Shown in pieces: positions 405-45,445 of a DNA stretch of 64,000 nucleotides. A model generated the notes under the pieces. That model saw nothing but the letters and a program-made list of their open reading frames with translations. It was not told where the DNA came from and did not search any database. The stretch lies in the NCBI GenBank assembly GCA_017441065.1, contig JAFSAI010000033.1, positions 2,581 to 66,580 on the forward strand, given 5' to 3'. The translations under genes and the position numbers were made by a program. Within the stretch, counting starts at the first letter, position 1. Each line of letters starts with the position of its first letter. The DNA comes from Bacilli bacterium. GTDB taxonomy: Bacteria > Bacillota_I > Bacilli_A > RF39 > UBA660.

Positions 405-1649
405 CTACTTCACCATTCTATAAGGATTTTCTATTGTTCCTGTTCCTTCCATTTCGATATTTTTTACTAAATTAATTACTGGTCTTACATTACGATACAA
501 ATCACCATTAATATCATTTCTAATATTTCCATTACTATCTATCATAAACAAGTTCATTGATGAAGCATCCCCTTTAGCTCCACTCATTGTATACCAAGGT
601 TCAGTAATATTACTATCATATAAATAATAATTTTTATTATATGATGTTGGAGTTGCTCCAGCTAATACAACTTCATCTATTGTAAGAAGGCCAATATTAT
701 TATTAAAGGCAGTTCCTAAACAATTAAGGGTAGGTATTTTATTTGTCATAATTCTTGTATATGAATTATAAGTATATATATCATCATATATTATATCATT
801 ACAAAATTTAGAATTTGCAATATAATCCGTATAATCGTATAAATTGTTTTCTAACCAATTTTCTAAAAACTCATTCATTGCAGATGTTTTATAATTATAA
901 CTACCATTACTTGATGAATAATAGCTTGCTATGGTATCTGTTACTCCATTTAAAATCATTCTTACTGTACCATCACCATTAATTCTTACTATTCTCCAAG
1001 TCATTCCACCAAATGAAACATAATTATTATTTACATTTCCTCTAAAATAATAAGATAATCCTATATCATCGCTACTTTTTATTAATCCTTCATTTTCAAT
1101 TCCTGCATCATATCCAACTTTAGTTAAAGAGCTTTCTGATGCTGGGGTGTTTTTAAGAATCAAATCTGCGAATGTCACACTTTTTCCTTCTTGAACACGA
1201 ATGTTTAGAATGCCTTTTAATGGTGTTTCACCGGTATTAGCTATTTCTAAAGTATATAATTTTGTTTCACCAGCTTCAATACTAATAAAATCAGTAGTTA
1301 TTTCATCAATACTTTTTAATTCACCTTCAGTAACAACTATTTCATTGTGTAACAACTTATAACTACCATTTCCTCTTACTTGAGCAAATCCTATATTGTA
1401 TAAACTTGTTTCATCACTACTATTTGTTACTGAAAATTTTATAATTTCTTTATCACTCACTAAGAAGTTTTTACCATCTATATAATTAATTGATAAGTTA
1501 CCATTAACTTCAATATCTGAACCTATTTCAGAAACTTTATCATAGAATAGATATAAAACTCCCAAACTTATCCCAATTACGATTAAAAAACCGATAAATG
1601 ATAAAAAAGATTTATATATAGCTCGCATTTTTAATTTTACCATTGTCAC
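405..1649 (-). CDS. Surface-anchored protein, member A of the GTGTxxDPY C-terminal motif family. Divergent copy: N-terminal TM, internal WRIVRINGDG block, C-term EGTGTIENPYRMVK.
   Basis: ORF track. N-terminal hydrophobic anchor. Shares the central MxxRIxxI block and the C-terminal G-T-G-T-x-x-[DN]-P-[YF] motif with the ORFs at 8304, 20506, 36857 and 43645. Confidence 0.6.
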   Translation of the reverse strand: MTMVKLKMRAIYKSFLSFIGFLIVIGISLGVLYLFYDKVSEIGSDIEVNGNLSINYIDGKNFLVSDKEIIKFSVTNSSDETSLYNIGFAQVRGNGSYKLLHNEIVVTEGELKSIDEITTDFISIEAGETKLYTLEIANTGETPLKGILNIRVQEGKSVTFADLILKNTPASESSLTKVGYDAGIENEGLIKSSDDIGLSYYFRGNVNNNYVSFGGMTWRIVRINGDGTVRMILNGVTDTIASYYSSSNGSYNYKTSAMNEFLENWLENNLYDYTDYIANSKFCNDIIYDDIYTYNSYTRIMTNKIPTLNCLGTAFNNNIGLLTIDEVVLAGATPTSYNKNYYLYDSNITEPWYTMSGAKGDASSMNLFMIDSNGNIRNDINGDLYRNVRPVINLVKNIEMEGTGTIENPYRMVK

Positions 1650-1710
1650 TTGGGCATCATCCTTACAATAACCATTATATACTAAATATTAAAATTATGT
1701 CAATTTTTGA

Positions 1711-2867: not shown

Positions 2868-4662
2868 CTAACACACTTCCTTGTAATTCTTCATAATCCT
2901 CAATTAGTTTATCCATAAATGTCATTGTATCATCAAAAACATCAGAACTTGTTATATCAATTCCAGCAACTTTTAATGAATCTATTGGATTTTTAGTACA
3001 ACCTAATTTCAAAAACTCTAAATATTTATCTCGAATTGTTTTATCTCCTTCATAAATCGCATTAGCAATTTTTACTGCCACAGTAAATCCAGTTGCATAT
3101 TGATACACATAAAAATTCATATAAAAATGTGGTATTCTTTCCCATTCGTATTTGATTTCTTCATCAATTATAACATTTTCTCCAAAATATAGTTTATTTA
3201 AATCGTAATATTTTTCACACATATTTTGACTAGTTAGGATTCCGCCTTGTTCAGCATATTCATGAATAAACAATTCAAATTCAGCAAACATAGTTTGACG
3301 ATAAATTGTAGATTTATATTTTTGTAATAAATCATCGATAATTTTGATTTTTTCTTTTTTTGATTTAGTATTATCAAGTAAATACCTACATAATAGAATT
3401 TCGTTTACTTGACTTGCAACTTCTGCCACAAAAATACTATAACCATAATCTTGATAATTTTGATATTTGCAAGCATAGTAATAATGCATTGCATGTCCAA
3501 GTTCATGAGCTAGTGTTGAAATATCATTAATCGTTCCTTCATAACTCATTAAAACATATGGATGTACTGAATAACAAGAAGTACAATAAGCGCCACCTCT
3601 TTTTCCTTCATTATTACATGAATCAATCCAGCCTTCATCAAATGATTTTTTTATATCATTTAAATAAGTTTCTCCTAATGGTTCTACTGCTTTTAGCACT
3701 AATTTTTTCGCATCATCAAAATTATATTTTTTAGAAAAACCAACATCAATATCAGCATATGTATCATATACATGTAATTCATCTAAACCTAGCAACTTTT
3801 TCTTTAAATCCCAATACTTATATAAAGATTTCAAATTTTTATGTACAGATTCAATTAAATTAACATATACTTTTGGATCTATTTCATTCGCAAATAATGA
3901 TGCTTCTAAACTATTATTAAATTTTCTAAGTTTTGCATTAACTACGTTTTTATTAACTTCGCTTCTAAGTATTGTTGCAAGTGTAGTTTTAAAATTCGCA
4001 TAAGTTTTATATAATGTTTCAAACGCAGATTTTCTAACCATTTTGTCACTATGTCTAATATAAACTGAATAATTACTTTCAGTAAGTTCTACTTCTTTGC
4101 CATCTACAACAATATTCCCAAATTTAAAATCACTATCGGTAAGAGCACCCATTATTTCATCTGGAGCATCCATTAAATTTGACAATGATGATAGGCAAGC
4201 TTCAACTTCACTACTTAAAATGTGTTCTTTATTTCTAAAAATATGTTTTAAATTTCTTTCATATTCTTTTAATTTATCACAAGATTTAATATAGTTTTCA
4301 ATCTTAGAATATTCACTTTGTAATAATTCAGGAACTATATAAGATGTTGCTTCTAAATATTTTGTATAAACATTTTTAGCTTTACCAAATAATTCTTGAT
4401 AATTAGTATCTAAAGTATCTGCATCATTATTAATATGTGCATAAATAAAAGCTTTTTCTATTCTTTTAGATATTTCTGTATCTAATTCTAATAAATTTAG
4501 CAAACTATTTGCACTTTCTAAAATTTTTCCTTTATAGTTTTCAAATTTATTTAATTCTTTCTCTATTTCTTTTAATTCATTTCCGCATTCTGTATCACTA
4601 GCATACAAATCTTTTACATTCCATTTATATTTAATATCAAAATCAGTTCTTTTCTTTGCCAT
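2857..4662 (-). CDS. pepF: Oligoendopeptidase F, M3B family metallopeptidase
   Basis: 601 aa with HELGHAMH zinc-binding HExxH motif and overall PepF-like length and composition. Overlaps the dnaJ start by 11 nt. Confidence 0.8.
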
Positions 4663-8243: not shown

Positions 8244-8303
8244 AAGGAAGAAAGATATGTGTGTTATCTTTCATGTTTATTTTAACGTCTTCATTGACGA
8301 TTA
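8244..8303 (-). repeat. Conserved 3' UTR element, copy 1 (plus strand: ...GGAAGAAAGATATGTGTGTTATCTTTC...TTATTTTAACGTCTTCATTGACGAT)
   Basis: About 60 nt between the stop codon and the terminator. Near-identical copies occur at 20450-20505 and 31727-31790, and a shorter copy at 43618-43644. Contains an 8-bp hairpin GAAAGATA/TATCTTTC with an ACACACA loop (as read on the mRNA strand). Confidence 0.75.
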
Positions 8304-9560
8304 TTAATTTATTAGGAATGGATCTGTTTCTGTTCCTGTTCCACCTGTTATATGTATTGTTGATTCTAGATAGAAGACTGGCTTAACATAAGTTCCTTCA
8401 CGCAACGAACCTTCTTTGTAATAACTAGCAGGTCCTACACCGCCTAAAGTAACTACACCTATAATCCAAGAAGAAAATACTTTACCACTAGTGTAAAGCG
8501 GAGTATTTAATTCAAAATAAACTCCACCATTTACATAGGAACTAAAGTCCATTAATAGTTCGTCTACTCTAGGTGTTGTTAACACCCAACTGCCATCACA
8601 TGAACTAAAACAATTGGCTCCGCTTAAATAATAGTAATCGTGTATATACATTACTCCAACTTTGGCATTTACACTATTGGAAAAAGAATTCTCTAAAGCA
8701 TATATTTCATCTGGAGTAACATTTGCTGAATTACGATTTGAAATTTCACCATATTTCCAAATTGTATTAGAAACTTTATTATACCAAACACTACTTGTGT
8801 TCATATAATCATAATTAGAACTATTTACAAAAAGATTACTATATCCACCGCCGCTTATACCATTTAGCCCTTTAAAAATATCACTATCAGCCCACAAAGC
8901 TTTTTCTTCGGTTTTGTGCCATGCGTACGCAGTATTATTTATAGGTTCCCTTTTGATTAATTTCAATTGTCCACTTGAATTCACACCTAATATTCGATAC
9001 ATATACTTATCTGTATTGTTTGTGCACGTCGACTTATTATTAGTTCCAAAACACACATAGTTATTTACTATATCATTATTGTTACTATTACCATGATATC
9101 TATACATTTCACCTTCCATATTCGTAGTGTTTAAACCTGATGTTGGATTTCTTAGTAAACATTCAGATGCTGTTTCATCTTCATTACACCACTTAGGTAT
9201 ACTAAAATACAAATAACAATAGCTTGTATTTCCTGTATCTACTGTTGCTATATTATTTGTGCTATCATAACTAAGTACTCCATCTAACTTATTTCCATTT
9301 ATATCTATACATCCTGACATAGACTCATTATATGTATATCCACTTGTTGGCCACGTACTAGTTGTATCTTCTTTATATGTTCCGTCTTCTTGTTCTAACA
9401 TTATCGCAAACATATTTGAATTATTTATATTTAAATTTACTTCATCTAAATTTGTATTTTTATTACCATATGATTTATACATCAAAAACAATGTACAGCT
9501 TTCTATTATCACTAACACTAGTATTACTATCACACATATTTTTTTGTTAACAACTTGCAT
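8304..9560 (-). CDS. Surface-anchored protein, family member B. N-term MQVVNKK + TM, C-term ITGGTGTETDPFLIN.
   Basis: ORF track. Its first 120 codons or so are about 93% identical at the DNA level to the ORF at 20506-21645. Variable centre. Conserved blocks YICFGT, YMYRIIG and KIGLMYIHDYYY. Conserved C-terminal motif. Confidence 0.8.
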   Translation of the reverse strand: MQVVNKKICVIVILVLVIIESCTLFLMYKSYGNKNTNLDEVNLNINNSNMFAIMLEQEDGTYKEDTTSTWPTSGYTYNESMSGCIDINGNKLDGVLSYDSTNNIATVDTGNTSYCYLYFSIPKWCNEDETASECLLRNPTSGLNTTNMEGEMYRYHGNSNNNDIVNNYVCFGTNNKSTCTNNTDKYMYRILGVNSSGQLKLIKREPINNTAYAWHKTEEKALWADSDIFKGLNGISGGGYSNLFVNSSNYDYMNTSSVWYNKVSNTIWKYGEISNRNSANVTPDEIYALENSFSNSVNAKVGVMYIHDYYYLSGANCFSSCDGSWVLTTPRVDELLMDFSSYVNGGVYFELNTPLYTSGKVFSSWIIGVVTLGGVGPASYYKEGSLREGTYVKPVFYLESTIHITGGTGTETDPFLIN

Positions 9561-9584: not shown

Positions 9585-9625
9585 TAAGGTAAGTATATAT
9601 TACCCCCCCCGAAGTCAAATTTTTG
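9585..9625 (-). promoter_or_regulatory. Sigma-A-type promoter with a homopolymeric G8 tract (C8 on plus, 9603-9610) inside the -35/-10 spacer. Candidate phase-variation switch.
   Basis: Minus strand reads TTGACT-TCGGGGGGGGTAATA-TATACT, then a 5' UTR with AAGGAAGAAAG SD, then ATG at 9560. Spacer is 15 nt with G8. The same promoter occurs upstream of two paralogues with different tract lengths. Confidence 0.75.
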
Positions 9626-20449: not shown

Positions 20450-20505
20450 TAGGAAGAAAGATATGTGTGTATCTTTCAAATTTATTTTAACGTCTTCATT
20501 GACGA
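20450..20505 (-). repeat. Conserved 3' UTR element, copy 2
   Basis: TTAGGAAGAAAGATATGTGTGTATCTTTC...TTATTTTAACGTCTTCATTGACGAT. Differs from copy 1 by a 1-nt deletion. Confidence 0.75.
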
Positions 20506-21645
20506 TTAATTTATAATATATGGATCAGTTGATGTTCCGGTTCCACCTGTTATTTTTACATCAGATTTCAAATAGAATACTGGACGAACCAAACGAGCGC
20601 TGTCCAAATAATTAAGTGTGGGAATTCCATCACTCGATGCCAAAGTCCATCCGCGAAAACTACTAGAACCACCTAAACGACTCATTAACCACTCTAGAAC
20701 ATTTGTAAGTGGAACATTATTGGATAAATGTATCCAAGCAGTTTTTGCATTACTAGGATTTTCTGGCGATCCTCCGCTAGCATAGGCGTAGTAATAATCG
20801 TGTATATACATCAAACCTATTTTTGCACTTATGGTATTCGCCCAACTATCTTCAATTGCATATATTGTTGGGCCATCATAACCACCATTACTTGTTGCAT
20901 CCCCATACTTCCACGTTGTTGTTGCTATTTTACTTTCCCATCCTGTCGGAACATATGTATTATTTAATAAGTAATCATTTCCGTTTAATGCTATATATAT
21001 TAAACTATTTGGCCATATTACATCTGTTGTATCGTCACTCCACCATGCTACTGATGTATTTAAGATTTCTTTCTTTATTAGTTTCATTTGCCCCTCTTCA
21101 GCAATTCCTATTATTCTATACATATATGTAGCTGTATTATTTGTACAATCCAACTTATTGTTTGTTCCAAAACATATATGATTATCTACATTGTCAGTTC
21201 CTTGATATCTATACATCCCTGCTTCTATTGTAGTGTTTAATCCACTAGATGGATTCTGCAAAAGGTATTCACTAGCATTAGGCCTACTAAAATACAAATA
21301 GCAATAACTAGTATTTCCTGTATCTACTGTAGCTATATTATTGGTACTATCATAGCTAAGTACACCATCTAACTTATTTCCATTTATATCTATACACCCT
21401 GACATAGAATCATTATATGTATATCCACTTGTTGGCCATGTACTCGTTGTATCTTCTTTATATGTTCCGTCTTCTTGCTCTAACATTATTGCAAACATAT
21501 TTGTATTATTTATATTTAGATTTACTTCATCTAATGTATTATTCTTATTACCATATGATTTGTACATTAGAAACAATGTACAACTTTCTATTATCACTAA
21601 CACTAATATTACTATCACACACATTTTTTTGTTAACAACTTGCAT
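20506..21645 (-). CDS. Surface-anchored protein, family member C. C-term ITGGTGTSTDPYIIN.
   Basis: ORF track. N-terminal 120 aa nearly identical to member B. Divergent centre. Conserved C-terminus. Confidence 0.8.
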   Translation of the reverse strand: MQVVNKKMCVIVILVLVIIESCTLFLMYKSYGNKNNTLDEVNLNINNTNMFAIMLEQEDGTYKEDTTSTWPTSGYTYNDSMSGCIDINGNKLDGVLSYDSTNNIATVDTGNTSYCYLYFSRPNASEYLLQNPSSGLNTTIEAGMYRYQGTDNVDNHICFGTNNKLDCTNNTATYMYRIIGIAEEGQMKLIKKEILNTSVAWWSDDTTDVIWPNSLIYIALNGNDYLLNNTYVPTGWESKIATTTWKYGDATSNGGYDGPTIYAIEDSWANTISAKIGLMYIHDYYYAYASGGSPENPSNAKTAWIHLSNNVPLTNVLEWLMSRLGGSSSFRGWTLASSDGIPTLNYLDSARLVRPVFYLKSDVKITGGTGTSTDPYIIN

Positions 21646-21659
21646 ATTCTTTCTTCCTT

Positions 21660-21712
21660 ATCTATTTTATAAGGTAAGTATATATTACCCCCCCCCGAAG
21701 TCAAATTTTTTG
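21660..21712 (-). promoter_or_regulatory. Paralogous promoter with a G9 tract (C9 on plus, 21688-21696) in the spacer
   Basis: TTGACT (plus 21699-21704 as AGTCAA), a 16-nt spacer containing G9, then TATACT (plus 21677-21682). Flanks identical to the 9585-9625 promoter. Confidence 0.75.
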
Positions 21713-21826
21713 GAATATTTTGTTATTAACTTCTAACCACAAAAAAAGAATAGATTACTATTCTTTGAATATTTTATCTACCAAATACACTTGTATATTA
21801 TTCTAACTTATAATATACTTTTCTTA

Positions 21827-21895
21827 GGAAGCGTGAATTTCACGTCGCCTGTTTAATTAGATGACGTTATTCTAATACTAGAATGACGTTTTTTA
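21827..21895 (+). ncRNA. Candidate cis-antisense small RNA, convergent with and overlapping the 3' end of the 34-aa peptide ORF
   Basis: Plus-strand promoter TTGTAT (21791-21796), 17-nt spacer, TATACT (21814-21819). Small hairpin CGTGAA-T-TTCACG. Intrinsic terminator ATTCTA-ATAC-TAGAAT + TGACGTTTTTTATTT (21868-21895) lying inside the peptide ORF's last codons. Confidence 0.35.
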
Positions 21896-21971
21896 TTTCT
21901 ATTACCAATACAATCAATAATAGCAATATTATTATTACTAATAAAAACTTGTTTAGAGTTTTTAATTTCAT
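21867..21971 (-). CDS. Small hydrophobic peptide, 34 aa (MKLKTLNKFLLVIIILLLLIVLVIEIKNVILVLE). Candidate type I toxin-like membrane peptide.
   Basis: Not in the ORF track because it is under 60 aa. Strong SD GAAGGAGGTGA 7 nt upstream of the ATG. Single TM helix with a charged tail. Extended -10 promoter (TTTACA-N17-TGaTTAAAT) about 90 nt upstream. Its own terminator lies at 21735-21760. Confidence 0.5.
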   Translation of the reverse strand: MKLKTLNKFLLVIIILLLLIVLVIEIKNVILVLE

Positions 21972-22109
21972 ACGCTCATCACCTCCTTCTCAGGACCAAT
22001 ACTACCTCCCCGTTAAGTTAGCTTTTAAGCGACGCCACATTCAACACTTCCATATTCATTTAATCACAATAGATATGTATTGTAAATTAATTTCGTATGT
22101 CATAAATCG

Positions 22110-23853: not shown

Positions 23854-23949
23854 ATGAATAAAAAAACTAGAAAAATTCTAGTATGGGTAATGCTATTCCT
23901 TATGGTTGCATCTTTCGTAGCAAGTATTGCAATATATGCACTAGCTTAA
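23854..23949 (+). CDS. Small hydrophobic peptide, 31 aa (MNKKTRKILVWVMLFLMVASFVASIAIYALA)
   Basis: SD AAGGTGGG 8 nt upstream of the ATG. Single TM. Its 3' end overlaps the pilD stop convergently by 9 nt. Confidence 0.4.
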   Translation: MNKKTRKILVWVMLFLMVASFVASIAIYALA

Positions 23950-24711
23950 TGAAAAGAAAACCAATAAATTAGTAAACTTTTCAATGAAAACAAACATTAT
24001 AATCATTGATGATATTAAAAATGGACCAAAAGGAAGTTCATTTTTTTTATTGAAATAAAGTGTTGCCATAGCATATGGTAATGCTAAAAATGCTGCAAAC
24101 ACAAGTGATATTAAACTAAGTCTAAATCCTATTCCAGGATATCCTAAAGTTAATCCGATTAAGAAACATAATTTAATATCTCCTCCACCAAGAGATTCTC
24201 TTTTATATATTTTATCGCCTATTATTTTTATCAAATACATAACTAAAAATAAAGCTATACCATAAAGAACAGAATAAATTGTATTTGTTAATCCTACTTC
24301 AAAATATCTTATTATAATTATTAAAATACTTCCTATTACTAATGGCGAATCTAATATAATCATATATTTAAAATCACTTACAAATATTATTAATGCCACA
24401 GATATTATTATTAAGTAAATTCCTAATTTTAAAGAAATATCAAAGTACAAATAACCTACTAAGAAAAGAATTCCTGTAGCAAGTTCCATTATTAAATGTT
24501 CTTTACTAATTTTTTTACCACAGTTACGACACTTACCTAATTGAATTATATAAGATACCAAAGGTATCAATTCATACCATTTTAATTCTTTTTTACAAGA
24601 ATCACATCTACTTCTTCCTGTAATTACATTTTCTTTTAAAGGTAATCTTGTTCCTATTACTAAATAGAAGGAGCCTAAAATGGCTCCTATAATAAACACA
24701 CAAACTCCCAT
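23941..24711 (-). CDS. pilD: Prepilin peptidase (A24 family; PilD/ComC)
   Basis: N-terminal tetra-Cys (CDSCKK...CRNCGKK) zinc motif. Polytopic. GGGDIKL and catalytic Asp-containing motifs typical of A24 peptidases. Confidence 0.85.
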   Translation of the reverse strand: MGVCVFIIGAILGSFYLVIGTRLPLKENVITGRSRCDSCKKELKWYELIPLVSYIIQLGKCRNCGKKISKEHLIMELATGILFLVGYLYFDISLKLGIYLIIISVALIIFVSDFKYMIILDSPLVIGSILIIIIRYFEVGLTNTIYSVLYGIALFLVMYLIKIIGDKIYKRESLGGGDIKLCFLIGLTLGYPGIGFRLSLISLVFAAFLALPYAMATLYFNKKNELPFGPFLISSMIIMFVFIEKFTNLLVFFSLS

Positions 24712-24724
24712 TTTTTTAATCCCC

Positions 24725-26299
24725 CTACATTACTTGTTCATACATTCCGAACATTGGAACAATAACAGCAATTATTATACCACCTACTACTATAGCTAAG
24801 AAACTAATAAGTATCGGTTCAATAAATGATTTTAAATTATTTACTACATTACGATGTAATCCTTGATAGTATTCACTAACCTTTTGCATCATATTATCAA
24901 GTTCACCAGTTGATTCACCAGTTACAATCATGAAATAGGCAACATCAGGTACTGCCCAGTGATCTTTGAATGCTTCGCTGATTTTTTCACCTTTAACTAT
25001 ATTATTAATTGTTCTATATAATATAGATTTATAAATTTCATTATTTGTAATTTTACTTAAAATATCAATACTTTCTGTAATAAATACGTTATTTCTTAAA
25101 AGAGATGCAAATGTTTTTGTAAATATGGCTAATTCATTATAAATGATAATGTCTTTTACAACAGGTATTTTCATCATCATTGTTTGCATACTTCTTCTAA
25201 ATGCTTTTACATTTTTATAAGCAACAATTAATACTATTACTGCTATTACTATTAGTAATAAGATTGTAAAGATATTGTTTTGTAAGAAGTGACTTAAATT
25301 AATTATGAATGCCGTAATACCATTTAATTCAATATTATTCTTTTCATATATTTCAACGAATTTTGGAATTATAAATACTAGGATAAATGCTACAACTGCA
25401 AAGGCAAAAATACTAATTATCAATGGATATGTCATTGCACTTTTCATTTGTTTCTTAGTTTCATCAACTTCAGTATAATAGTTAGCCATATCTTCTAGTG
25501 TTTCAATTAAAGTACCACTAGCTTCTGCAGCTTTAATCATATTAATAAGAAGCGGTGGGAACATATTTCCTTGTTTTTCTAAAGCAGATGAGAAAGACGC
25601 TCCTAATGTAAGTTCATAAGACATTGATTGGAATGCTCTGGCTTTACTTTTCTTACTAGCCATTTGTTTTGACAATATTTTAACTGCATCGTTTAAAGTG
25701 ATTCCAGCTTTTAAATATGTAGATAATTGAGTTAACCAGAATATTAATTCTTTAGTAGACATTTTTGGACTACCAAATGAAGATTCTTTAAATAAGAAAT
25801 TAATCATTGGGCTAGTTTTAATACTATATACTGTATAACCTTCATTTACTAAGAATGAATTTATATCTAATTTAGATAAACCATTCATAGTACCAGTAAT
25901 TATTTTTCCTTGTTTATCTCTAACTTTAAAATAATAAACATTAACTTCTTTACTACGAGTCGCTCCTGTAGTTTGTAAATCTTGTAATAATGCTTGATAT
26001 TCTTGTTCTAATTTTGCTAATGTTTTAGCACTATAATTATAAACTTTTTCTTTTTTCTTTTTATTATCGTAACCATCATCTTCATGAGGTCCTAAAGCTT
26101 CTTTAGTTCTTTTATATGCTTTATCTAATTTCCAACTAGTACTATTATATAAATATACAAACAAATCATAAGTACAAGCTTTTAATCCAATAAAAGCATA
26201 AGAAAAAATTGAAAATATTACTAAACAAATATTTTTTAAAAACTCTAAAAATAAAACATACCACACTTTTTTTTCGTTAGGTGTTGCAACATTATCCAT
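24725..26299 (-). CDS. pilC: Type II secretion / type IV pilus platform protein (GspF/PilC/ComGB family) with an extra N-terminal extension
   Basis: Two GspF-type repeats and 3 TM segments (about 400 aa C-terminal), preceded by an about 130-aa N-terminal region containing a TM. Adjacent to pilD. Confidence 0.8.
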   Translation of the reverse strand: MDNVATPNEKKVWYVLFLEFLKNICLVIFSIFSYAFIGLKACTYDLFVYLYNSTSWKLDKAYKRTKEALGPHEDDGYDNKKKKEKVYNYSAKTLAKLEQEYQALLQDLQTTGATRSKEVNVYYFKVRDKQGKIITGTMNGLSKLDINSFLVNEGYTVYSIKTSPMINFLFKESSFGSPKMSTKELIFWLTQLSTYLKAGITLNDAVKILSKQMASKKSKARAFQSMSYELTLGASFSSALEKQGNMFPPLLINMIKAAEASGTLIETLEDMANYYTEVDETKKQMKSAMTYPLIISIFAFAVVAFILVFIIPKFVEIYEKNNIELNGITAFIINLSHFLQNNIFTILLLIVIAVIVLIVAYKNVKAFRRSMQTMMMKIPVVKDIIIYNELAIFTKTFASLLRNNVFITESIDILSKITNNEIYKSILYRTINNIVKGEKISEAFKDHWAVPDVAYFMIVTGESTGELDNMMQKVSEYYQGLHRNVVNNLKSFIEPILISFLAIVVGGIIIAVIVPMFGMYEQVM

Positions 26300-31726: not shown

Positions 31727-31790
31727 CTTAGGAAGAAAGATATGTGTGTTATCTTTCTGGTTTATTTTAACGTCTTCATTGACGATTATT
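31727..31790 (-). repeat. Conserved 3' UTR element, copy 3. Not attached to a family gene: it sits in the 3' UTR of the unrelated secreted-protein gene 31864-33267.
   Basis: TTAGGAAGAAAGATATGTGTGTTATCTTTC...TTATTTTAACGTCTTCATTGACGATTATT. Followed at 31698-31717 by a terminator hairpin GCTAGT-TACATAAA-ACTAGC + T6 (as read on the minus strand). Confidence 0.7.
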
Positions 31791-31863
31791 ATTTATAGGA
31801 ATATTTCTTTTGTTACTGCTTTTTTTTCATCAATTTGGATCATAATAATTAATCAAGGAAAGC

Positions 31864-33267
31864 TTAATAGCTTTCCTTCTTTATTTTTCTTATTAATTTT
31901 TTTATTAATACTAATGAAATTATAAATTCACATACATAAATATCAATATTATCAAACGTTCTGGGATTTTCAATATTATCTATAATAGTATCATTTATTT
32001 CTGGTAAAACATTACTTATTTCATCTTTACTAGTCTCTTGTAACTCTTCCATTACTTCTTCCTTATTTATATCATCTGGAACTACTACTTCTTTAATTTC
32101 GCTTTTAACAGTAATTTCTTCATCAATCGAATCTTTAACAATTATCTCTTGATAATAATCAGTATCTTTATTTTCTATATAATAAGTACCATAAGGTAAT
32201 GTTATGACATCAGTTTGAATATTTACTTTTTCATATATTTCGTTGTTGCTTTTCAAATGAATATTGTATTCATAATTATCTAAAACATTAATACTAATAT
32301 TTTTAGATATTACATATTTATCAACATTAACATCTAAACTATTACCAGAAATTTTGACAGAAAATTCCTCTATATTATTTATGCCTTCCACATTAGAAAT
32401 ATCTTTTACTTTATAAGTCCATTCTGGAACCAAATAAATATTATCTAGATCATTAGTAGTAAATAATTCTTTTTTATTATAAATAATTTGATACGTACTA
32501 TTAAGTGATGCATCACCAGTACGTCCATTAACTCCAATTAAATTTTCAATAATATTTAACTTACCACCAAAAACATGATAATCAAAAGAATAATTAATAT
32601 CTTCAGGACCTTTTAAACTTTGCCAATATATATTATTGCCTACTTTATATGTTCTAATTTCATTATCATAATCCTTACTAAAGTTAAGAGTATATTTTCC
32701 AACTTTTTTTGGATATAAACTAATTTTATTACCTACAGTTTTAATATCTATTTCATCTAATTTAGGATTATCTAAAATAATAGCTCCTTCATCATATTCA
32801 AATTTACTAGTTGTCCATATAAAATCATTATATACCTTATCAAATATATTTGACTTTAAATAATGATTATTTATTTTTTCCAATAATACATTATATTGAT
32901 TTAACATATCAGAAGATATATTTATAAATTCAATATCAAAATTACCTATTAAATTCCATACTATAAGTTGAGTTATAACATAATTTTCTATAGTGGGATT
33001 TTCTAAATAACCATAATAAACTATCGTCGAAAATTTATTTATATCTTTGTTTTCTTCAACATATTCTTCTAATGCATCATTTATATCATAATTATTAATA
33101 TCTATATTAAATAACATATTTCCATTATAACTAATTTCTTTAATATTTATTATTTCATTATTTATACTAACACTATATACAGTATCTTTTATAAAAATAT
33201 TAGCATTTACTATATTTAAATTAACAAAAAAACTAACTAATATAATAATTAATTTTATCACAAACAA
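31864..33267 (-). CDS. Secreted/anchored protein of unknown function (signal peptide, C-terminal TM + basic tail)
   Basis: N-terminal signal-like segment MFVIKLIIILVSFFVNLNIVNA. Asn/Tyr-rich body. C-terminal hydrophobic segment plus KKLIRKIKKESY. Confidence 0.5.
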   Translation of the reverse strand: MFVIKLIIILVSFFVNLNIVNANIFIKDTVYSVSINNEIINIKEISYNGNMLFNIDINNYDINDALEEYVEENKDINKFSTIVYYGYLENPTIENYVITQLIVWNLIGNFDIEFINISSDMLNQYNVLLEKINNHYLKSNIFDKVYNDFIWTTSKFEYDEGAIILDNPKLDEIDIKTVGNKISLYPKKVGKYTLNFSKDYDNEIRTYKVGNNIYWQSLKGPEDINYSFDYHVFGGKLNIIENLIGVNGRTGDASLNSTYQIIYNKKELFTTNDLDNIYLVPEWTYKVKDISNVEGINNIEEFSVKISGNSLDVNVDKYVISKNISINVLDNYEYNIHLKSNNEIYEKVNIQTDVITLPYGTYYIENKDTDYYQEIIVKDSIDEEITVKSEIKEVVVPDDINKEEVMEELQETSKDEISNVLPEINDTIIDNIENPRTFDNIDIYVCEFIISLVLIKKLIRKIKKESY

Positions 33268-36856: not shown

Positions 36857-38146
36857 TTAACCAATTAAATAGGGTTCTGTTTGAGTACCTTTTCCTTCAG
36901 AAATTTTAATACTACTATTTAAATAGAAAGCTGGACGTATAGAAAGGGCATGCATTGTATACTGACCTGTAGAACTTATTTCTCCTGTTCCACTTATATA
37001 CCACGCATATTGAAGATTTCTCATTGTACCAGTTCCATATCTAGACATCGTCCACTCATAACCTACTGCCCAATCATCAGGTGGTGTATCATCATTATTA
37101 CTTAAGTGAATCCATCCCGTTTTTAATATACCATAATTTGAATTCGATATATAATTTAATGCTCTCTCTCCTAATGATAACGCATAATCACTAACATACA
37201 TTAATCCTATTTTTGAAGTAACATTTTTCCATTCCCCTATAGTGCTAGTTTTTGTATTTCTATTCATTTCATGTAAATATATATTTTGTGCAGCAACACC
37301 AGAGTAGTCTAGACCACTACTTTCATTTGTTAATGTATTTATTGCTACAAAATTCCAGTCAATTATTTTACTTAACCATAAGTCTTTTTGCATATATGAA
37401 TATGTTGTATTATTTAGGAAATAATTTCCGTTTATCCCATTGTATAATTCACTTGCTTCCCAATTTGTATCAACCCTATAAGCACTATGCCATGCATAAG
37501 CTGTATTTAATGCTTCTTTTTTGATTAATTTTAAATGGTATCCACCAACCGGATCCTGAAAAATTCCAATAATACGATACATATATAAGTCTGTATTATC
37601 TATACAAGTATCTTTATCTGTAGTTCCAAAACATATATAATTATCTGGATAAGTTCCAATATAACGATATCCATCATCTTCTAATGAACTATCCCAAATA
37701 TCACTTATAAATTTTAAATTACTACTTTCTTCTTTTATACATTCATCAATATTATTATATGTTTTACACAAATCATATAGATTAGTGGCTGGCATATCAA
37801 AATATAAGTAACAATATGAAGTGTATTCAGAATTAACTTCAGCTATATTTGTTTTAGGATCATACTTTAATGCTCCTGGTATCATTTCTCCATTAATATC
37901 AACACATCCAGAAATACTACTATTGTATTTGTAACCTTCTCCAGGCCATATGGCATTATCCGCTTCTTTATATGATCCATCATCTTGCTCTATCATTATG
38001 GCAAATATGCTATCTTGAATATTATCTAATTTAAATTTTTCCCATTGAACGTTTTCGTTACCGTATATAAAAGTCACAAAAAACAAAACTAGTAATAATA
38101 CTATAGCAACGCTTACTAAACCAATTGTTGTTTTATCTGCTTTCAT
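36857..38146 (-). CDS. Surface-anchored protein, family member D. C-term ISEGKGTQTEPYLIG. No poly-G promoter.
   Basis: N-terminal TM. Shares the blocks FAIMIEQDDGSYKE, YTSYCYLYFD, YICFGT, LYMYRIIG and KIGLMYVSDY, and the C-terminal motif, with members B and C. Confidence 0.75.
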   Translation of the reverse strand: MKADKTTIGLVSVAIVLLLVLFFVTFIYGNENVQWEKFKLDNIQDSIFAIMIEQDDGSYKEADNAIWPGEGYKYNSSISGCVDINGEMIPGALKYDPKTNIAEVNSEYTSYCYLYFDMPATNLYDLCKTYNNIDECIKEESSNLKFISDIWDSSLEDDGYRYIGTYPDNYICFGTTDKDTCIDNTDLYMYRIIGIFQDPVGGYHLKLIKKEALNTAYAWHSAYRVDTNWEASELYNGINGNYFLNNTTYSYMQKDLWLSKIIDWNFVAINTLTNESSGLDYSGVAAQNIYLHEMNRNTKTSTIGEWKNVTSKIGLMYVSDYALSLGERALNYISNSNYGILKTGWIHLSNNDDTPPDDWAVGYEWTMSRYGTGTMRNLQYAWYISGTGEISSTGQYTMHALSIRPAFYLNSSIKISEGKGTQTEPYLIG

Positions 38147-38236
38147 ATTTCAAGTCCATTTCTATTATATATAAATTATATAATACTTAGTAAAACTGAG
38201 TCAAGTTAAGAGACAAAAAAAGAAGTCTTTAGACCT

Positions 38237-39235
38237 CTAATTTTCTCCTTCTTCCAACATTTTAGTTATAAACAAACCATAACCTGTTAGGGGATTATCT
38301 ACAATAACATGAGTAACTACTCCTACTATCATATCATTTTGCATTATTGGTGAACCACTCATCCCTTGTACAACGCCACCAGTTTTTTTAATCAATTTTT
38401 CATCAGTTATTTCAAACGTAATATTTTTAGTATCACTTGTCTCATTAATATTAGTTATATTAATTTCAAATTCTTCTACTTTTTCTCCATCTAACACTGT
38501 GTAAATATAAGCTTTTCCTACTTTTATATTATCTTTATCGCCTACTTTTACAAGTTCCATATCATTTATGTTATAAGCGTATTTACCAAATATACCATGA
38601 TTAGTATTTTTATAAATACTTCCATATATAGTATTATAAAAATATTTTGCATTTTTACTTCCCGCATGTCCTATTTCAGACTTATCTATTGAGGTAATTG
38701 AATTTCTAAAAATACTTCCACTTTTTATTTCTACTATTTTACTACTATTCCCTTCAATTACTTCATGACCTAAAGCACCATATATTAATGTTCCCGGATC
38801 TATATAAGTAAGAGTTCCAATTCCTGTTATACTATCTTTAACATATAGTCCAGTCTTATAAATTCCATTTTCATTTATTAATTCAAGTGTTGTACGCTTT
38901 TCATCCTTACCTCTTTTATAAGTGATTTCAACACTTCCATCAGTTGTATGTTTTTCTATTTCTTTAGAGAGTTCACTTAAAGAATAAACTTCTACATCAT
39001 TTATCTTTTTGATATAATCGCCCACTTTTAACTTTGGATTTCCTTTATTATATTTTCCATCTATTTGATAAAATCCAACAATAAGCACTCCATCACATTC
39101 AATTTCTATGCCTAAAGTATTACCACCCCTATAAATATAGTCTGAATAAGCAAATACATTAAGTGGCATCAATAAAATACTTAAAAACAATATTAATTTT
39201 TTCATACATATCACCATCAATATTATTGTGCCCAC
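38237..39235 (-). CDS. spoIVB: SpoIVB peptidase (S55 family, PDZ + serine peptidase)
   Basis: Signal anchor. PDZ domain. Catalytic motif VVQGMSGSPIMQNDMIVGVVTHV typical of SpoIVB. Confidence 0.85.
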   Translation of the reverse strand: MGTIILMVICMKKLILFLSILLMPLNVFAYSDYIYRGGNTLGIEIECDGVLIVGFYQIDGKYNKGNPKLKVGDYIKKINDVEVYSLSELSKEIEKHTTDGSVEITYKRGKDEKRTTLELINENGIYKTGLYVKDSITGIGTLTYIDPGTLIYGALGHEVIEGNSSKIVEIKSGSIFRNSITSIDKSEIGHAGSKNAKYFYNTIYGSIYKNTNHGIFGKYAYNINDMELVKVGDKDNIKVGKAYIYTVLDGEKVEEFEINITNINETSDTKNITFEITDEKLIKKTGGVVQGMSGSPIMQNDMIVGVVTHVIVDNPLTGYGLFITKMLEEGEN

Positions 39236-43582: not shown

Positions 43583-43606
43583 AAAGGAAAGTATTTCTAC
43601 TTTCCG
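43580..43606. terminator. Bidirectional terminator between the convergent DUF368 gene and surface-protein gene E
   Basis: GGAAAGTA-TTTC-TACTTTCC flanked by A5 and T runs. Confidence 0.7.
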
Positions 43607-43617
43607 AAGGGTTAAGT

Positions 43618-43644
43618 CTATTTTAACGTCTTCGTTGACGATTG
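43618..43644 (-). repeat. Conserved 3' UTR element, copy 4 (core only: TATTTTAACGTCTTCGTTGACGAT)
   Basis: Lies immediately after the stop of gene E. Lacks the GAAAGATA hairpin half. Confidence 0.65.
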
Positions 43645-45378
43645 TTAACTTATTATATATGGGTCAGTTGATGTTCCGGTTCCGCTTGTAATTTTTATAG
43701 ATGATTCTAAATAAAAGAATACTCGAAACCAATTAGAAGAAGTAGTAAGACTATAACTTGCGATTGTTCCATAACTAGGGTCCATATAATATGCAAAAGT
43801 TGTACCATTTTTTACTATCATCCACTCTTTCATACCAGCACCAATACCCCGAAACATCCACACGTTTTTTAATGCACTGTTTGCACCAGGATTTCCTCCT
43901 ATATAAGCATATAAATAATCACTTGGATACCCTAATCCTATTTTCGCAGATGTGCTATTTCCCAAATTGATTTCAGCATCGTAGGAATCATCTCCAGAAT
44001 ACATATCAACAATCGAAAAAGCAATTTGACCATATTTCCAATTAACTAGTGCTATTTTACTATCCCATCCACTTGGTACATAGGTAGTATTTGTTAGAAA
44101 TGAACTTCCATTTATTGCTAGATATATCGAAGATGCAGACCATGCAATATCACTTCTTGAGGAGTGCCATTTTAAACCACTCATTTGTTTTTGTTTAATT
44201 AATTTTAACTTACCAGATGAATCAACACCAATTATTCGATACATATATACTTCTAGATTACTTGTACATGTTGATTTGTCTGTTGTTCCAAAACATATGT
44301 AATTATTATCAACTACATCACCAGTTCCTTGGTATCTATACATATCACCATATTCAGCTGTTGAGATATTAGCTATTTCTTTTAATTTACTACTTCCATA
44401 TTTACTTGACATACATGTTCCCATATTTGTATATGATGAACATAATGTGTATAAACTTGGTACTGGTTTGGCGATGCTTATAGCACTTGTTCTATGTCCT
44501 ATGTTTCCTGCTTTATCTTTAACATGAATATAATAATTACCTGTTGCTGTTACTGCTGTTGTACTTGTAAATGTTGTTCCACTTACTTCATCCCATATAC
44601 ATCCGCTTGTTGATGTACTACTTGTATTTACACATACATGTGTTACTCCACTTCCTGTTTCTGTTACTATTACATTTGCTGTTCCTGCTCCACTATCACT
44701 TGCACTTGTTATTACTGGTGATACGGTATCAAGGAACACACTGTCACTTACTACTGGTGATATGTTTTCTGCTGCATCTCTTATAAATGCATATCTTGTA
44801 TTACTTCCTTGTGTGCTTATTGTATAACTTGGTGTTACTGAATTACCTGTTGTGCTTACCCAATTACAACTACTTGAATTGTTTTCTGGATTTATACAAT
44901 AACTTGTTATGTCATTATCTGTCCATGATAGGTATGCTGTTGTATTTGTTGTATTTATATATTCTGGATTAGTACTTCCTCCTAGATAAAATGTAAATGT
45001 TTGTGGTGGCACTTTATCTAAATCAAAGTACAAATAACAGAATAATGTTTTATTACTACTAACTGTTATTTTATTATTGTTATATGATATTACATCACTT
45101 ACTACTTTTCCTTTATTATCTGTACAATTACTTCTTTCTTCATTAAAGTAATATTTTAATCCTATGGGATAGTATTCACTATCTGTATATTCCTCGTATT
45201 CTCCATTTTTATTCTCTACATACATTGAAAACATTTCTTTATTTACTTTATTTTCTTCTTTTATTTCTTTTATATCTTTATTACCATATGATTTGACTGA
45301 TAAATATGTAAACACACATTCTATTACTACTAATAAAGTTATCGTTATTATCCAAAGTTTTTTGTTAACAACTCTCAT
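43645..45378 (-). CDS. Surface-anchored protein, family member E, with an inserted Ser/Thr-rich module. C-term ITSGTGTSTDPYIIS.
   Basis: N-term MRVVNKK + TM. An about 200-aa S/T-rich insertion (VSPVITSASDSGAGTANVIVTETGSGVTHVCVNTSSTSTSG...). Conserved blocks YICFGT, VYMYRIIG and KIGLGYPSDYLYAY. Confidence 0.8.
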   Translation of the reverse strand: MRVVNKKLWIITITLLVVIECVFTYLSVKSYGNKDIKEIKEENKVNKEMFSMYVENKNGEYEEYTDSEYYPIGLKYYFNEERSNCTDNKGKVVSDVISYNNNKITVSSNKTLFCYLYFDLDKVPPQTFTFYLGGSTNPEYINTTNTTAYLSWTDNDITSYCINPENNSSSCNWVSTTGNSVTPSYTISTQGSNTRYAFIRDAAENISPVVSDSVFLDTVSPVITSASDSGAGTANVIVTETGSGVTHVCVNTSSTSTSGCIWDEVSGTTFTSTTAVTATGNYYIHVKDKAGNIGHRTSAISIAKPVPSLYTLCSSYTNMGTCMSSKYGSSKLKEIANISTAEYGDMYRYQGTGDVVDNNYICFGTTDKSTCTSNLEVYMYRIIGVDSSGKLKLIKQKQMSGLKWHSSRSDIAWSASSIYLAINGSSFLTNTTYVPSGWDSKIALVNWKYGQIAFSIVDMYSGDDSYDAEINLGNSTSAKIGLGYPSDYLYAYIGGNPGANSALKNVWMFRGIGAGMKEWMIVKNGTTFAYYMDPSYGTIASYSLTTSSNWFRVFFYLESSIKITSGTGTSTDPYIIS

Positions 45379-45394
45379 ATTATCTTACCCTTCT

Positions 45395-45445
45395 TTTATT
45401 TATAAGGTAAGTATATATTACCCCCCCCGAAGTCAAATTTTTTCA
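45395..45445 (-). promoter_or_regulatory. Paralogous promoter with a G8 tract (C8 on plus, 45421-45428) in the spacer
   Basis: TTGACT (plus 45431-45436), 15-nt spacer, TATACT (plus 45410-45415). Flanks identical to the other two copies. Confidence 0.75.

Follow-up and report, generated by a model that had tools for sequence, protein, structure and literature searches.

Gene family and its dispersed copies

The window, meaning the whole 64-kb stretch of DNA analysed, carries five open reading frames (A to E) that a first-pass annotation had grouped as a dispersed family of surface proteins with conserved ends and a variable centre. All five were confirmed, each on the minus strand (Table 1), as was their scattering among housekeeping genes, with dnaJ, hrcA, mltG/yceG, ruvX, ireB, rpoD, dnaG, rnfC/D and spoIVB as neighbours. 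The host, which lives in the gut, is an uncultured member of Bacilli with a low GC content (26%) and is not a pathogen; because genes for MltG/YceG and SpoIVB are present, it is probably walled.

Members B, C, D and E match one another by tblastn (E 1e-9 to 1e-120) and align from end to end. No tblastn match at 1e-3 was obtained between A and the other members. Profile comparison with hhalign matched residues 196-412 of A to the family C-terminal domain (probability 96.8%, E 3e-10), while residues 1-195 are unrelated to B-E. The proposed family of five is instead made up of four true paralogues and one remote relative that shares a domain with them, and five is also too low a number for the genome, as at least 10 further paralogues of the same MAG (IJN13_) lie among the best 120 matches. 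In all, 2165 homologues were found in the database, so the family is not a product of chance.

The conserved features proposed for the five proteins held to differing degrees. Five internal sequence blocks are exact or nearly so in B and C; they can still be recognised in D and E, and A lacks most of them or has them in very diverged form. The C-terminal motif G-T-G-T-x-[TE]-[DN]-P-[YF]-x-I fits B, C and E, but the corresponding strings are GKGTQTEPYLI in D and GTGTIENPYRM in A. The mosaic relationship of B and C stood up in its main outline, a conserved 5' part followed by divergence. In successive 20-codon windows over codons 1-120 their nucleotide identity is 97, 85, 93, 95, 93 and 92%, and past codon 120 it ranges from 33 to 75%, with 70% in the last window; synonymous divergence (dS) is 0.39 in the N-terminal module (N-module) and above 2 in the centre. 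To say that the two genes diverge completely is nevertheless too strong, as their centres remain about 40-55% identical as protein. The near-identity of B and C also extends to about 85 nt upstream of the ATG.

Table 1. Positions of family genes, promoters and associated elements in the window
Feature	Position	Strand	Description
Member A	405..1649	-	414 aa; distant relative; N-terminal 195 aa different, residues 196-412 of the same head-domain type
Member B	8304..9560	-	418 aa; anchor and stalk module 9198-9560, lectin-like head 8307-9197
Member C	20506..21645	-	379 aa; N-module coded by 21283-21645
Member D	36857..38146	-	429 aa; family architecture, without poly-G tract
Member E	43645..45378	-	577 aa; N-module, insert of about 200 aa, head
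A promoter	1674-1703		ordinary; TTGACA-18-TATAAT
B promoter	9592..9618	-	TTGACT, TC-G8-TAATA, TATACT; poly-G 9603-9610; 15-nt spacer
C promoter	21677..21704	-	TTGACT, 16 nt, TATACT; poly-G 21688-21696 (G9)
D promoter	38175..38204	-	ordinary; TTGACT, 18 nt, TATAAT
E promoter	45410..45436	-	TTGACT, TC-G8-TAATA, TATACT; poly-G 45421-45428
3' element of B	8245..8309	-	immediately 3' of stop codon; includes hairpin GAAAGATAACACACATATCTTTC; repeat family D7
3' element of C	20450..20514	-	after stop codon; end of cassette polymorphism at 20478
3' element of E	43586..43650	-	after stop codon; more diverged than other copies
Orphan 3' element	31730..31794	-	95% identical to that of B; preceded by relic of the last codons of a family gene
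C cassette	20479..22002	-	small anchor-like ORF, promoter, gene C, proximal part of 3' element

Anchor module and head domain

Each protein would start at its N-terminus with a hydrophobic helix, a putative membrane anchor, followed by a small stalk of beta structure that holds a conserved cysteine pair, and then by a head. In C, for which a structure model was obtained (pLDDT 89.5), the transmembrane helix spans residues 6-32 and is followed by a disordered linker (34-47), the stalk (51-120) and the head (124-379). The Cys pairs C84/C115 and C158/C167 are invariant. The insert of about 200 aa in E is rich in Ser/Thr and Cys, and the same type of insert occurs in the homologues P0020 and P0116.

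The N-module is represented by 1320 cluster representatives, and in other proteins it carries DUF285/BspA repeats, Laminin_G_3, F5/8-type-C, Ig-like and other domains. The window family thus has this module in common with the BspA-like/DUF285 leucine-rich-repeat (LRR) surface proteins of Mollicutes and Firmicutes, with 92% identity across about 120 residues (32% of the query) in P0103, P0107 and P0110. The cargo of those proteins is, however, LRR/DUF285 rather than a lectin-like head, and the window holds no such member. Taken together, the N-terminal helix in the model of C, the Cys pairs and the binding-type cargos found elsewhere suggest that B-E are very probably extracytoplasmic, held by an anchor at the N-terminus and equipped with a variable domain for binding, as the first-pass annotation had proposed.

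Three other modes of surface attachment were considered. A lipoprotein of the Mycoplasma Vlp/Vsa type was ruled out with the lipobox pattern [LVI][ASTVI][GAS]C: B and C read IIESC and E reads VIEC, D and A have no cysteine in the helix, and a lipobox-like string occurs in only 2 of 136 N-module representatives. Sortase anchoring was likewise ruled out, as none of the five proteins has an LPXTG-type motif with a hydrophobic stretch and basic tail, the chain ending directly after the ...DPYIIN strand of the head. Finally, a Pfam search and a regular-expression scan found no prepilin leader (G at -1, E at +5; PF07963) in the window proteins, and these motif tests rule out a prepilin reading of them.

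The last result bears on a wider proposal, that the family provides components or tip adhesins of a type IV pilus/Com-like filament assembled by nearby T2SS-type machinery. The neighbourhood gives this some appeal, as a T2SSE ATPase gene adjoins D (35490-36788), and the region upstream of C encodes T2SSF and a prepilin peptidase (annotation taken from the 98% identical contig L121); moreover, the homologue P0116 fuses a true prepilin leader (PF07963) to the same type of head. Against this stand the lack of both the G|F-x-x-x-E motif and a PF07963 match in every window member, the occurrence of the motif in 0 of 136 N-module representatives, the dispersal of the family genes outside pilus operons, and the model of C, in which a disordered linker follows the helix instead of the packing of pilin alpha1 against a beta head. 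We therefore give the pilus proposal very little credence.

The first-pass annotation had not recognised the family. With Pfam and NCBIfam, no match to the five window proteins reached threshold and no Pfam family appeared at E<=1; none of the proteins attains the gathering score of DUF6273 (Pfam PF19789). Weak DUF6273 matches were nonetheless present in 6 of 66 homologues (best E 6.8e-4), and DUF6273 was also matched in 4 of 83 N-module proteins (best E 3e-10). In the structure model, the head of C is predicted to adopt the fold of the solved DUF6273 domain and to contain the core fold of a CTLD (C-type-lectin-like domain). Based on these profile matches and fold comparisons, the head (about 250 aa) appears to be a remote DUF6273 domain, or enlarged CTLD. 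The C-terminal motif, which had been listed as a separate and unfamiliar feature, is simply the last strand of this domain and recurs at the end of every head in tandem-head proteins. The variable loops of the head (residues ~201-210, 251-270, 291-300 and 311-350 of C) may form a ligand-binding surface.

The closest solved relative of the head is a domain of a peptidase, the N-terminal domain of the Thomasclavelia ramosa IgA peptidase (PDB 9qa6); a PDB sequence search with the family profile gave one chance match only. This relationship raises the alternative that the head is an enzyme or enzyme-accessory module, with a formylglycine-generating-enzyme-like fold or as a protease-associated domain, whose variation would alter substrate range. 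The DUF6273 domain of the IgA peptidase is, however, dispensable for enzyme activity and has no known function, and the DUF6273 domains of phages are presumed receptor-binding modules. In addition, no catalytic-domain family was detected in any member with Pfam or NCBIfam, and the other cargos of the N-module are binding-type domains (lectin-like, LRR, Ig-like). We regard an enzymatic role for the head as very improbable.

A binding head on an anchored stalk agrees with the use of DUF6273 or an enlarged CTLD as a variable, presumably ligand-binding surface module in the IgA peptidase and in phage tentaclins. The window heads differ from both in falling below every curated sequence threshold and in being mounted on an N-terminal anchor module rather than on a sortase-anchored peptidase or a phage tail. 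An origin from a prophage or a phage receptor-binding protein was rejected, as PHROGs returned only a weak family without assigned function, for A and D, and tblastn against 50,697 phage records gave no match.

Exchange of heads and cassettes

Recombination at the conserved ends, which the first-pass annotation had suspected, is directly visible at B. To either side of B, contig L118 matches the window at 98.6 and 98.7% identity (5.4 kb and 5.0 kb, respectively), and it has no DNA similarity to window segment 8325-9197, carrying an unrelated head instead. The breakpoints fall at B codon ~121 and within the last ~7 codons. An independent 35-kb contig (L119) has the same alternative head, followed by hrcA-grpE-dnaK. 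The 3' element of B lies inside the 3' homology arm of this replacement. The only Rfam match in the window is a tRNA, which means that the conserved 3' element does not belong to a known RNA family.

Whole cassettes also vary in presence. The C cassette is absent from L121 and L124, both of which are collinear with the window at 98.3-99.6% on either side, and its junction shows TGAAA microhomology; in L123 the C locus is occupied by a different allele of 416 aa. The orphan 3' element is the probable scar of a lost cassette, and its site is built in the same way as the empty C site in L121. As side observations, L107/L120 has the same allele behind a different upstream flank, and L128/L130 joins a Ribul_P_3_epim context to ireB; relocation or a chimeric contig could account for either, and both were set aside as evidence.

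In this layer of variation, as the strain comparison shows, the promoter and N-module form a conserved 5' arm, and the last GTGTxTDPYII codons together with the 65-nt 3' element a 3' arm. The two arms mark the ends of recombination events by which heads are replaced or whole cassettes deleted and inserted. A different source of head hypervariability would be a diversity-generating retroelement (DGR), since DUF6273 domains and C-lec folds are often DGR targets, as in tentaclins and TvpA. Yet nothing resembling a template repeat, that is a non-coding head copy, turned up among the 20 largest repeat families of the window (out of at least 60), and the ORFs scanned in the window neighbourhood include no reverse transcriptase. 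The C-terminal end, where a DGR variable region usually lies, is the most conserved part of the proteins, and alleles differ along the whole head rather than at adenine-templated positions. The DGR reading was rejected on these grounds and we consider it extremely unlikely; compared with DGR-varied tentaclins, the window heads would owe their variation to paralogy and recombination.

Promoter tracts and the proposed switching

Poly-G tracts inside the promoters of B, C and E, on which the first-pass annotation had not remarked, are the most telling feature of the window. They are its only runs of G>=7 (7 overlapping matches against 0.21 expected in 64 kb), and the window has no G/C runs of 6-7 nt. 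The predicted hexamers and tract follow the pattern TTGAC[AT]-[CT]C-G(n)-TA[AT]TA-TATA[AC]T, which is the spacer-tract arrangement of a phase-variable promoter of the porA/tp0126/vlp type.

In a set drawn from related genomes, other assemblies and the window, an ORF with the N-module follows 49 of 50 such promoters, though several assemblies of the same window genes are included and the set does not amount to 50 independent loci. Tract lengths in this set are G6 (1), G7 (3), G8 (31), G9 (14) and G10 (1), and in a consensus scan the sole G10 copy proved to be a perfect TTGACA-17-TATAAT. Four species or more have the poly-G spacer promoter, the tract being flanked by conserved hexamers, and single rabbit-gut MAGs hold about 18 or more each among the loci fetched. 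Two promoter-pattern scans of metagenome contigs gave 0 matches and then 5, of which 4 represent chance in GC-rich DNA. JGI metagenome contigs fetched by protein identity do contain the pattern, and the scanned collection evidently lacks those samples.

Most members are preceded by a promoter of their own in which a G6-G10 tract separates the -35 (TTGACA/T) and -10 (TATAAT or TATACT) hexamers. We propose that slipped-strand mispairing would alter the spacer, G8 giving 15 nt, G9 16 nt and G10 17 nt. Transcription of each gene would then be switched or graded independently, with most copies at any time in a weak or off state (G8). For the window this would leave B and E weak or off, C intermediate, and A and D expressed constitutively from their ordinary promoters with 18-nt spacers. 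This assignment of states would be wrong if a 15-nt spacer is acceptable to the host RNA polymerase, or if another -10 is in use.

Comparison between samples showed limited differences in tract length. The B tract is also G8 in a second assembly (L003), contig L004 starting just downstream of it, and the E tract is G8 in three other assemblies. At the C locus the window, L002 and L125 have a tract of G9, and L001/L122 one of G8. L122 has two other differences from the window in 6243 nt, with the tract as the only indel, and L125 has no differences in 4775 nt. Tracts of G8, G8 and G9 were found for the P0014 gene across samples, and the identical 416-aa allele has G9 in L123 and G8 in L128. At the level of assemblies, samples thus differ in 3 of 7 multi-sample genes, always G8 versus G9, and the other 4 are monomorphic; these differences could be fixed between strains or reflect assembler choices, rather than switching within a population. 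Many contigs end in or beside a tract. The repeat of ~85-450 nt shared by paralogues could alone break assemblies there with no heterogeneity of the tract, and for this reason contig ends were not counted as evidence of heterogeneity.

These data need to be weighed against diversification by recombination only, in which poly-G would be a constant part of the promoter, for example a contact for a regulator or the polymerase or a spacer with an unusual DNA structure, and the length differences would be neutral differences between strains or noise from assembly. The evidence for head replacement and cassette loss does not depend on the tract, differences between samples are only +/-1 nt with 4 of 7 genes monomorphic, and the dominance of G8 (31/50) is what would be expected if one length were the functional one. 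On the other hand, runs of G8-G10 in a genome of 26% GC are a classic slippage substrate, in four species or more the tracts sit exactly in the -35/-10 spacer between conserved hexamers, tract lengths of paralogues span G6 to G10, and the tract is the sole indel in 6.2 kb of otherwise near-identical DNA. Based on this, we think recombination alone unlikely to be the full explanation, though this alternative deserves to be taken seriously.

Dispersed paralogues with conserved ends and variable centres, as in the window family, also characterise the Neisseria opa and Mycoplasma variable surface repertoires, where simple repeats give independent on/off control and variable segments are exchanged between alleles. 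The opa repeat lies in the coding region, whereas that of the window family lies in the promoter, and the protein folds are unrelated.

Precedents for switching through a spacer tract are T. pallidum tp0126 and N. meningitidis porA (PMC7864442), and spacer length switches Mycoplasma vlp, maa2 and vmm (PMC2268961). In porA and tp0126/tpr (both poly-G), M. hyorhinis vlp, M. arthritidis maa2 and M. mycoides vmm, as here, a homopolymer between -35 and -10 sets the spacer, and in vlp and tpr each paralogue has its own tract, as in the window family (PMC7864442, PMC2268961). The genes controlled in porA/tp0126/vlp-type systems encode surface proteins, as proposed for the window, and tract length is polymorphic between near-identical genomes there and, in the assemblies compared, here too. 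Unlike the hosts of those systems, ours is an uncultured gut Bacilli member of 26% GC, no pathogen and probably walled, and the scale is larger, at about 18 or more poly-G promoters per rabbit-gut MAG. The window proteins are neither lipoproteins nor porins, in contrast to vlp and porA.

Overall, we favour, as the probable reading, that the window genes belong to a contingency-type multigene family encoding lectin-like proteins of the cell surface, in which slippage at promoters and recombination of cassettes create the variation; switching of genes of the B, C and E type is what we infer from spacer geometry and precedent. The proteins would likely serve in variable adhesion to glycans of host, dietary or microbial origin, or in escape from IgA or phage. 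The labels 'antigenic variation' and 'adhesin' may apply. A broader reading has, in our view, about an even chance of being correct: that uncultured gut Bacilli possess a 'phasome' of dozens of independently switching poly-G promoters with one universal display module, whose heads are recombined at fixed arms. Lectin-like, LRR or Ig-like heads would then be interchangeable on the N-terminal module, giving Mycoplasma- or Neisseria-style combinatorial variation in a commensal Firmicute, built from an anchor module that had no name before (the 1320 cluster representatives) and from a branch of DUF6273 not assigned until now.

Promoter-tract phase variation of surface repertoires is textbook knowledge for a few pathogens (Neisseria, Haemophilus, Treponema, Mycoplasma). 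A limited literature search found no description of it in uncultured commensal gut Bacilli, and limited literature and family-library searches found none of this protein family or its N-terminal module. The window family thus resembles surface-variation systems known elsewhere, but in a lineage and a protein family from which we found none described.

If the switching is real, it brings a practical warning for metagenomics, given the many contigs ending at the tract: since the cassettes may break assemblies and differ between near-identical strains, they are easily mis-binned or mis-called. Dozens of loci would then be devoted to stochastic surface variation, a finding relevant to the ways in which commensals of low abundance deal with IgA, with phages and with shifts in the glycans around them. 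DUF6273 would in that case gain a cellular role as an exchangeable binding head, beyond its known occurrence in an IgA peptidase and phage receptor-binding proteins.

Family membership and domain architecture

All five minus-strand ORFs (A-E) reported by the first-pass annotation are present in the window with coordinates exactly as it gave them, against a background of ~26% GC in which the minus strand holds nearly all genes. Its proposal of a five-member family holds for B, C, D and E, which are clear paralogues by alignment and tblastn (E 1e-9 to 1e-120), but A shares only the C-terminal domain. A gave no tblastn match to B-E at E 1e-3; profile comparison with hhalign assigned its residues 196-412 to the same domain type (probability 96.8%, E 3e-10), and residues 1-195 are unrelated to the other members. 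Likewise, the conserved blocks and C-terminal motif it quoted are real in B, C and E, but D fits them more loosely and A mostly lacks them. Its description of the copies as dispersed is valid for the window, as their neighbours are housekeeping genes (dnaJ, hrcA, yceG/mltG, ruvX, ireB, rpoD, dnaG, rnfC/D-like, prsA-like and spoIVB).

Features of the window and their positions
Feature	Position	Strand	Remarks
ORF A	405-1649	-	Ordinary promoter, TTGACA-18-TATAAT, 12/12 matches
ORF B	8304-9560	-	
ORF C	20506-21645	-	
ORF D	36857-38146	-	Ordinary promoter, TTGACT-18-TATAAT
ORF E	43645-45378	-	
3' element of B	8245-8309		65 nt, after stop codon
3' element of C	20450-20514		65 nt, after stop codon
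3' element of E	43586-43650		65 nt, after stop codon
Orphan 3' element	31730-31794		95% identical to B copy; downstream of unrelated ORF
Relic before orphan element	31795-31815		Resembles last few codons of family gene
34-aa ORF	21867-21971	-	MKLKTLNKFLLVIIILLLLIVLVIEIKNVILVLE; own Shine-Dalgarno sequence
T2SSF platform protein and A24 prepilin peptidase	23941-26299	-	Upstream of C; annotation from 98% identical contig L121
467-aa protein	31864-33267	-	No Pfam match; signal-like N-terminal segment
T2SSE ATPase	35490-36788	+	Adjoins D
SpoIVB-type peptidase S55	38237-39235	-	With PDZ domain
537-aa predicted coiled-coil protein	39295-40908	-	Weak apolipoprotein-like Pfam matches
Tandem repeats in coiled-coil gene	39866-40345		Four of 120 nt (40 aa), 63-79% identical to reference copy

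The wider family is large and paralogous, joining a common N-terminal module (putative anchor and stalk, the first ~120 residues) to a lectin-like head of ~250 aa. Searched against the protein collection, C gave 2165 homologues, with named sources given as 'MAG: Bacilli bacterium'; within the top 120, a functional name occurs only once, as a source annotation (BspA-family LRR surface protein). At least ten more paralogues share the IJN13_ locus-tag prefix of C. Scanning genomes that represent species gave 78 loci, mostly in rabbit-gut Bacilli MAGs, and single MAGs contain ~25 or more family loci each, part of them in tandem. Phage origin was rejected after searches of phage families and phage records.

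An AlphaFold model of C, with 66 homologues as input, was confident (pLDDT 89.5) and comprises a helix (residues 6-32), a disordered linker (34-47), a small beta domain (51-120) and a large alpha/beta domain (124-379). The helix would serve as a membrane anchor, placing the head outside, and two invariant cysteine pairs (C84/C115 and C158/C167) fit an extracytoplasmic location. The window proteins gave no matches in Pfam or NCBIfam, and DUF6273 (PF19789) was matched in 6 of the 66 homologues (best E 6.8e-4). Because this sequence-level link is weak, the head is treated as a remote, so far unassigned DUF6273 branch. The N-terminal domain of the Thomasclavelia ramosa IgA peptidase, an enlarged C-type-lectin-like domain without which IgA cleavage still proceeds (PMC12237041), has been placed in DUF6273 (PMC12402451). 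In the 'tentaclins' of gut phages, DUF6273 domains are presumed receptor-binding modules diversified by diversity-generating retroelements (PMC10743442; bioRxiv 10.1101/2024.10.15.618418). Neither an enzymatic role of the family proteins nor retroelement mutagenesis of their genes found positive evidence here.

The motif G-x-G-T-x-x-D-P-x-I-I closes each head in tandem two-head proteins (homologue P0002) and forms the last beta strand in the C model; as modelled, it is the terminal strand of the head domain and not a sorting signal. Across the 66 homologues, variability peaks at residues ~201-210, 251-270, 291-300 and above all 311-350, a region in which insertions cluster as well, and the core strands and C-terminal strand are conserved. 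By analogy with known C-type-lectin-like domains, the variable loops would make up the binding surface, and the heads may bind variable ligands.

As a display device, the N-terminal module is of general use. In a search of 1.84 billion proteins, a profile covering residues 1-125 matched 1320 cluster representatives (611 at E<=1e-10), always at the extreme N-terminus of proteins of 100 to 1072 aa. The family head is present in 46 of the 84 representatives of at least 290 aa. A Pfam scan of 83 of these representatives found DUF285/BspA-type repeats in 10 and, in a few each, canonical DUF6273, F5/8-type-C, ALK/LTK glycine-rich, Ig-like, GLUG, fn3 or PKD domains; Laminin_G_3 is present in one poly-G-promoter gene from a rabbit-gut MAG. 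Nearby genes for T2SSE, T2SSF and a prepilin peptidase, together with a genuine prepilin leader in one homologue, hint at a role connected with pili, whereas the window proteins are without such a leader.

Other genes were noted in passing. The T2SSE, T2SSF and A24 prepilin peptidase genes belong to type IV filament machinery; scanned by regex, the window gave no ORF with a prepilin motif. The 467-aa protein may be another kind of surface protein, since its C-terminus (...NPRTFDN, a hydrophobic stretch and a Lys/Arg-rich tail) resembles a sortase (NPxTx-type) sorting signal. The SpoIVB-type peptidase, in a 26% GC 'Bacilli' MAG, hints that the host is spore-forming or keeps sporulation genes, and is walled and not Mollicute-like.

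Poly-G tracts in predicted promoter spacers

The promoter tracts of B, C and E were missed by the first-pass annotation. Each of B (G8), C (G9) and E (G8) is preceded, ~45 nt before its ATG, by a run of at least seven G, and the 64 kb has no other such run; the seven overlapping matches compare with 0.21 expected, and the window is free of G/C runs of 6 or 7. The three tracts lie within an identical element, AAATTTGACTTC-G(n)-TAATATATACTTACC, which reads as a sigma-70-type promoter (TTGACT, TC-G(n)-TAATA, TATACT). As the tract sits between TTGACT and TATACT in the form TC-G(n)-TAATA, the predicted spacer is 7+n nt (15 for G8, 16 for G9); a consensus scan returned TTGACT-16-TATACT for C. A and D have no G tract.

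These tracts are tied to the N-module across species, recurring in other genomes and assemblies as CTTGAC[AT]CC-G(n)-TA[AT]TATATAAT. Among 50 instances, which take in multiple assemblies of the same window genes and so are not 50 independent loci, an N-module ORF (HMM match) lies downstream in 49, the remaining one being ~30 nt from its contig's end, and tract lengths are G6 (1), G7 (3), G8 (31), G9 (14) and G10 (1). The sole G10 copy is a perfect TTGACA-17-TATAAT. Read from sequence, this geometry matches that of the established spacer-length switches porA of N. meningitidis and tp0126 of T. pallidum (PMC7864442) and vlp, maa2 and vmm of Mycoplasma (PMC2268961). Tract length may likewise set promoter strength, with an optimum predicted at G10-G11; most copies would therefore be silent or weak, and few on.

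As a limited test, tracts were compared between contigs of other samples encoding identical proteins. For C, the window, L002 and L125 (which shows 0 differences over 4775 nt) have G9, and L122, with 2 substitutions elsewhere in 6243 nt, has G8; the tract of the P0014 gene is G8, G8 and G9; and that of a 416-aa allele at the C locus is G9 in L123 and G8 in L128, with an identical protein. The B tract is also G8 in L003, as is that of E in three other assemblies, and the P0004 and P0024 genes have G9 in two and three copies, respectively. One-nucleotide polymorphism between near-identical genomes is thus found in three of seven genes, in DNA otherwise identical or nearly so. These between-sample differences fit a slippage hot spot. 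We regard a fixed, non-switching poly-G element as a less probable account of the tracts. In L122, where the poly-G indel is the only other difference from the window, the two substitutions (~3421-3427) split ruvX into 59- and 78-aa ORFs, a split that may reflect an error in assembly or sequencing, or a genuine pseudogene.

Many contigs start inside or just past the tract, which the long repeat common to the paralogues could alone explain. Over several assemblers and samples, starts fall in the tract or a few bases off, or ~40-50 nt upstream of the ATG (for example L004, L015, L016, L019, L022, L023, L026, L095-L097, L104, L105, L108-L110), and poly-G cassettes seem to be a systematic cause of breaks in metagenome assemblies.

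Head replacement and cassette gain and loss

Heads are replaced, and cassettes gained and lost, with ends within conserved arms. The near-identical 5' arm of B and C runs from ~85 nt upstream of the ATG to codon 120 (dS 0.39, dN 0.02); their centres have dS >2 and dN 0.59. On both sides of B, the 17.7-kb JGI metagenome contig L118 matches the window collinearly (98.6% identity over 5.4 kb, 98.7% over 5.0 kb). From 9198 (the N-module end) to 8324 (seven codons before the stop), DNA similarity to L118 is undetectable, and the replacement segment encodes a different head, P0024. The B head falls outside the eight closest to P0024 in the set searched, where identities drop to ~41%. In a different sample, the 35-kb contig L119 also carries the P0024 head, with hrcA-grpE-dnaK after it.

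The C locus exists in three states: that of the window, the 416-aa allele with a partly replaced head (L123), and an empty site (L121, L124) that lacks 20479-22002 between flanks 98.3-99.6% identical. The empty junction has TGAAA microhomology; of the conserved 3' element, the distal hairpin alone is left there. This element contains two small hairpins, CGTCAATGAAGACG and GAAAGATA-ACACACA-TATCTTTC; no T-run follows it, B has a separate terminator further on, and Rfam gave no match. The orphan copy with its preceding relic probably marks where a cassette was deleted; it is similar to the empty C site of L121. The B head swap, the C-locus states and the orphan element together support the earlier idea of conserved ends serving as arms for recombination.

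The 34-aa ORF resembles the family N-terminal anchor (basic residues, a hydrophobic stretch, Glu) and could be a vestige of an earlier family gene; it sits within the segment missing from L121 and L124, with the deletion junction directly after its ATGAAA. In L128 and L130 (JGI 3300018494, 3300022661) a Ribul_P_3_epim gene precedes the 416-aa allele and ireB follows it. L107 and L120 carry the same family alleles in other upstream contexts, the P0024 allele of L107 having a C-locus-like flank from -80. These differences reflect either true rearrangement among paralogous loci or chimerism, with short contigs fused within the shared promoter/N-module repeat.

A candidate contingency family

Overall, what the first-pass annotation observed was largely right, and its interpretation was half right. 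We favour with moderate confidence a contingency family varied by promoter-tract switching and recombination, in which the switch itself is the step we infer. The selective agent may be host IgA, phage or a shifting glycan supply. The mechanism belongs to a known kind, that of simple-repeat contingency loci and recombining surface-protein repertoires. The promoter tracts and directly visible cassette exchange make the case more interesting than first described, and the novelty lies in the lineage (gut Bacilli that are uncultured commensals), in the protein family (a so far unnamed display module at the N-terminus, with an unassigned DUF6273 branch) and in the scale of the system.
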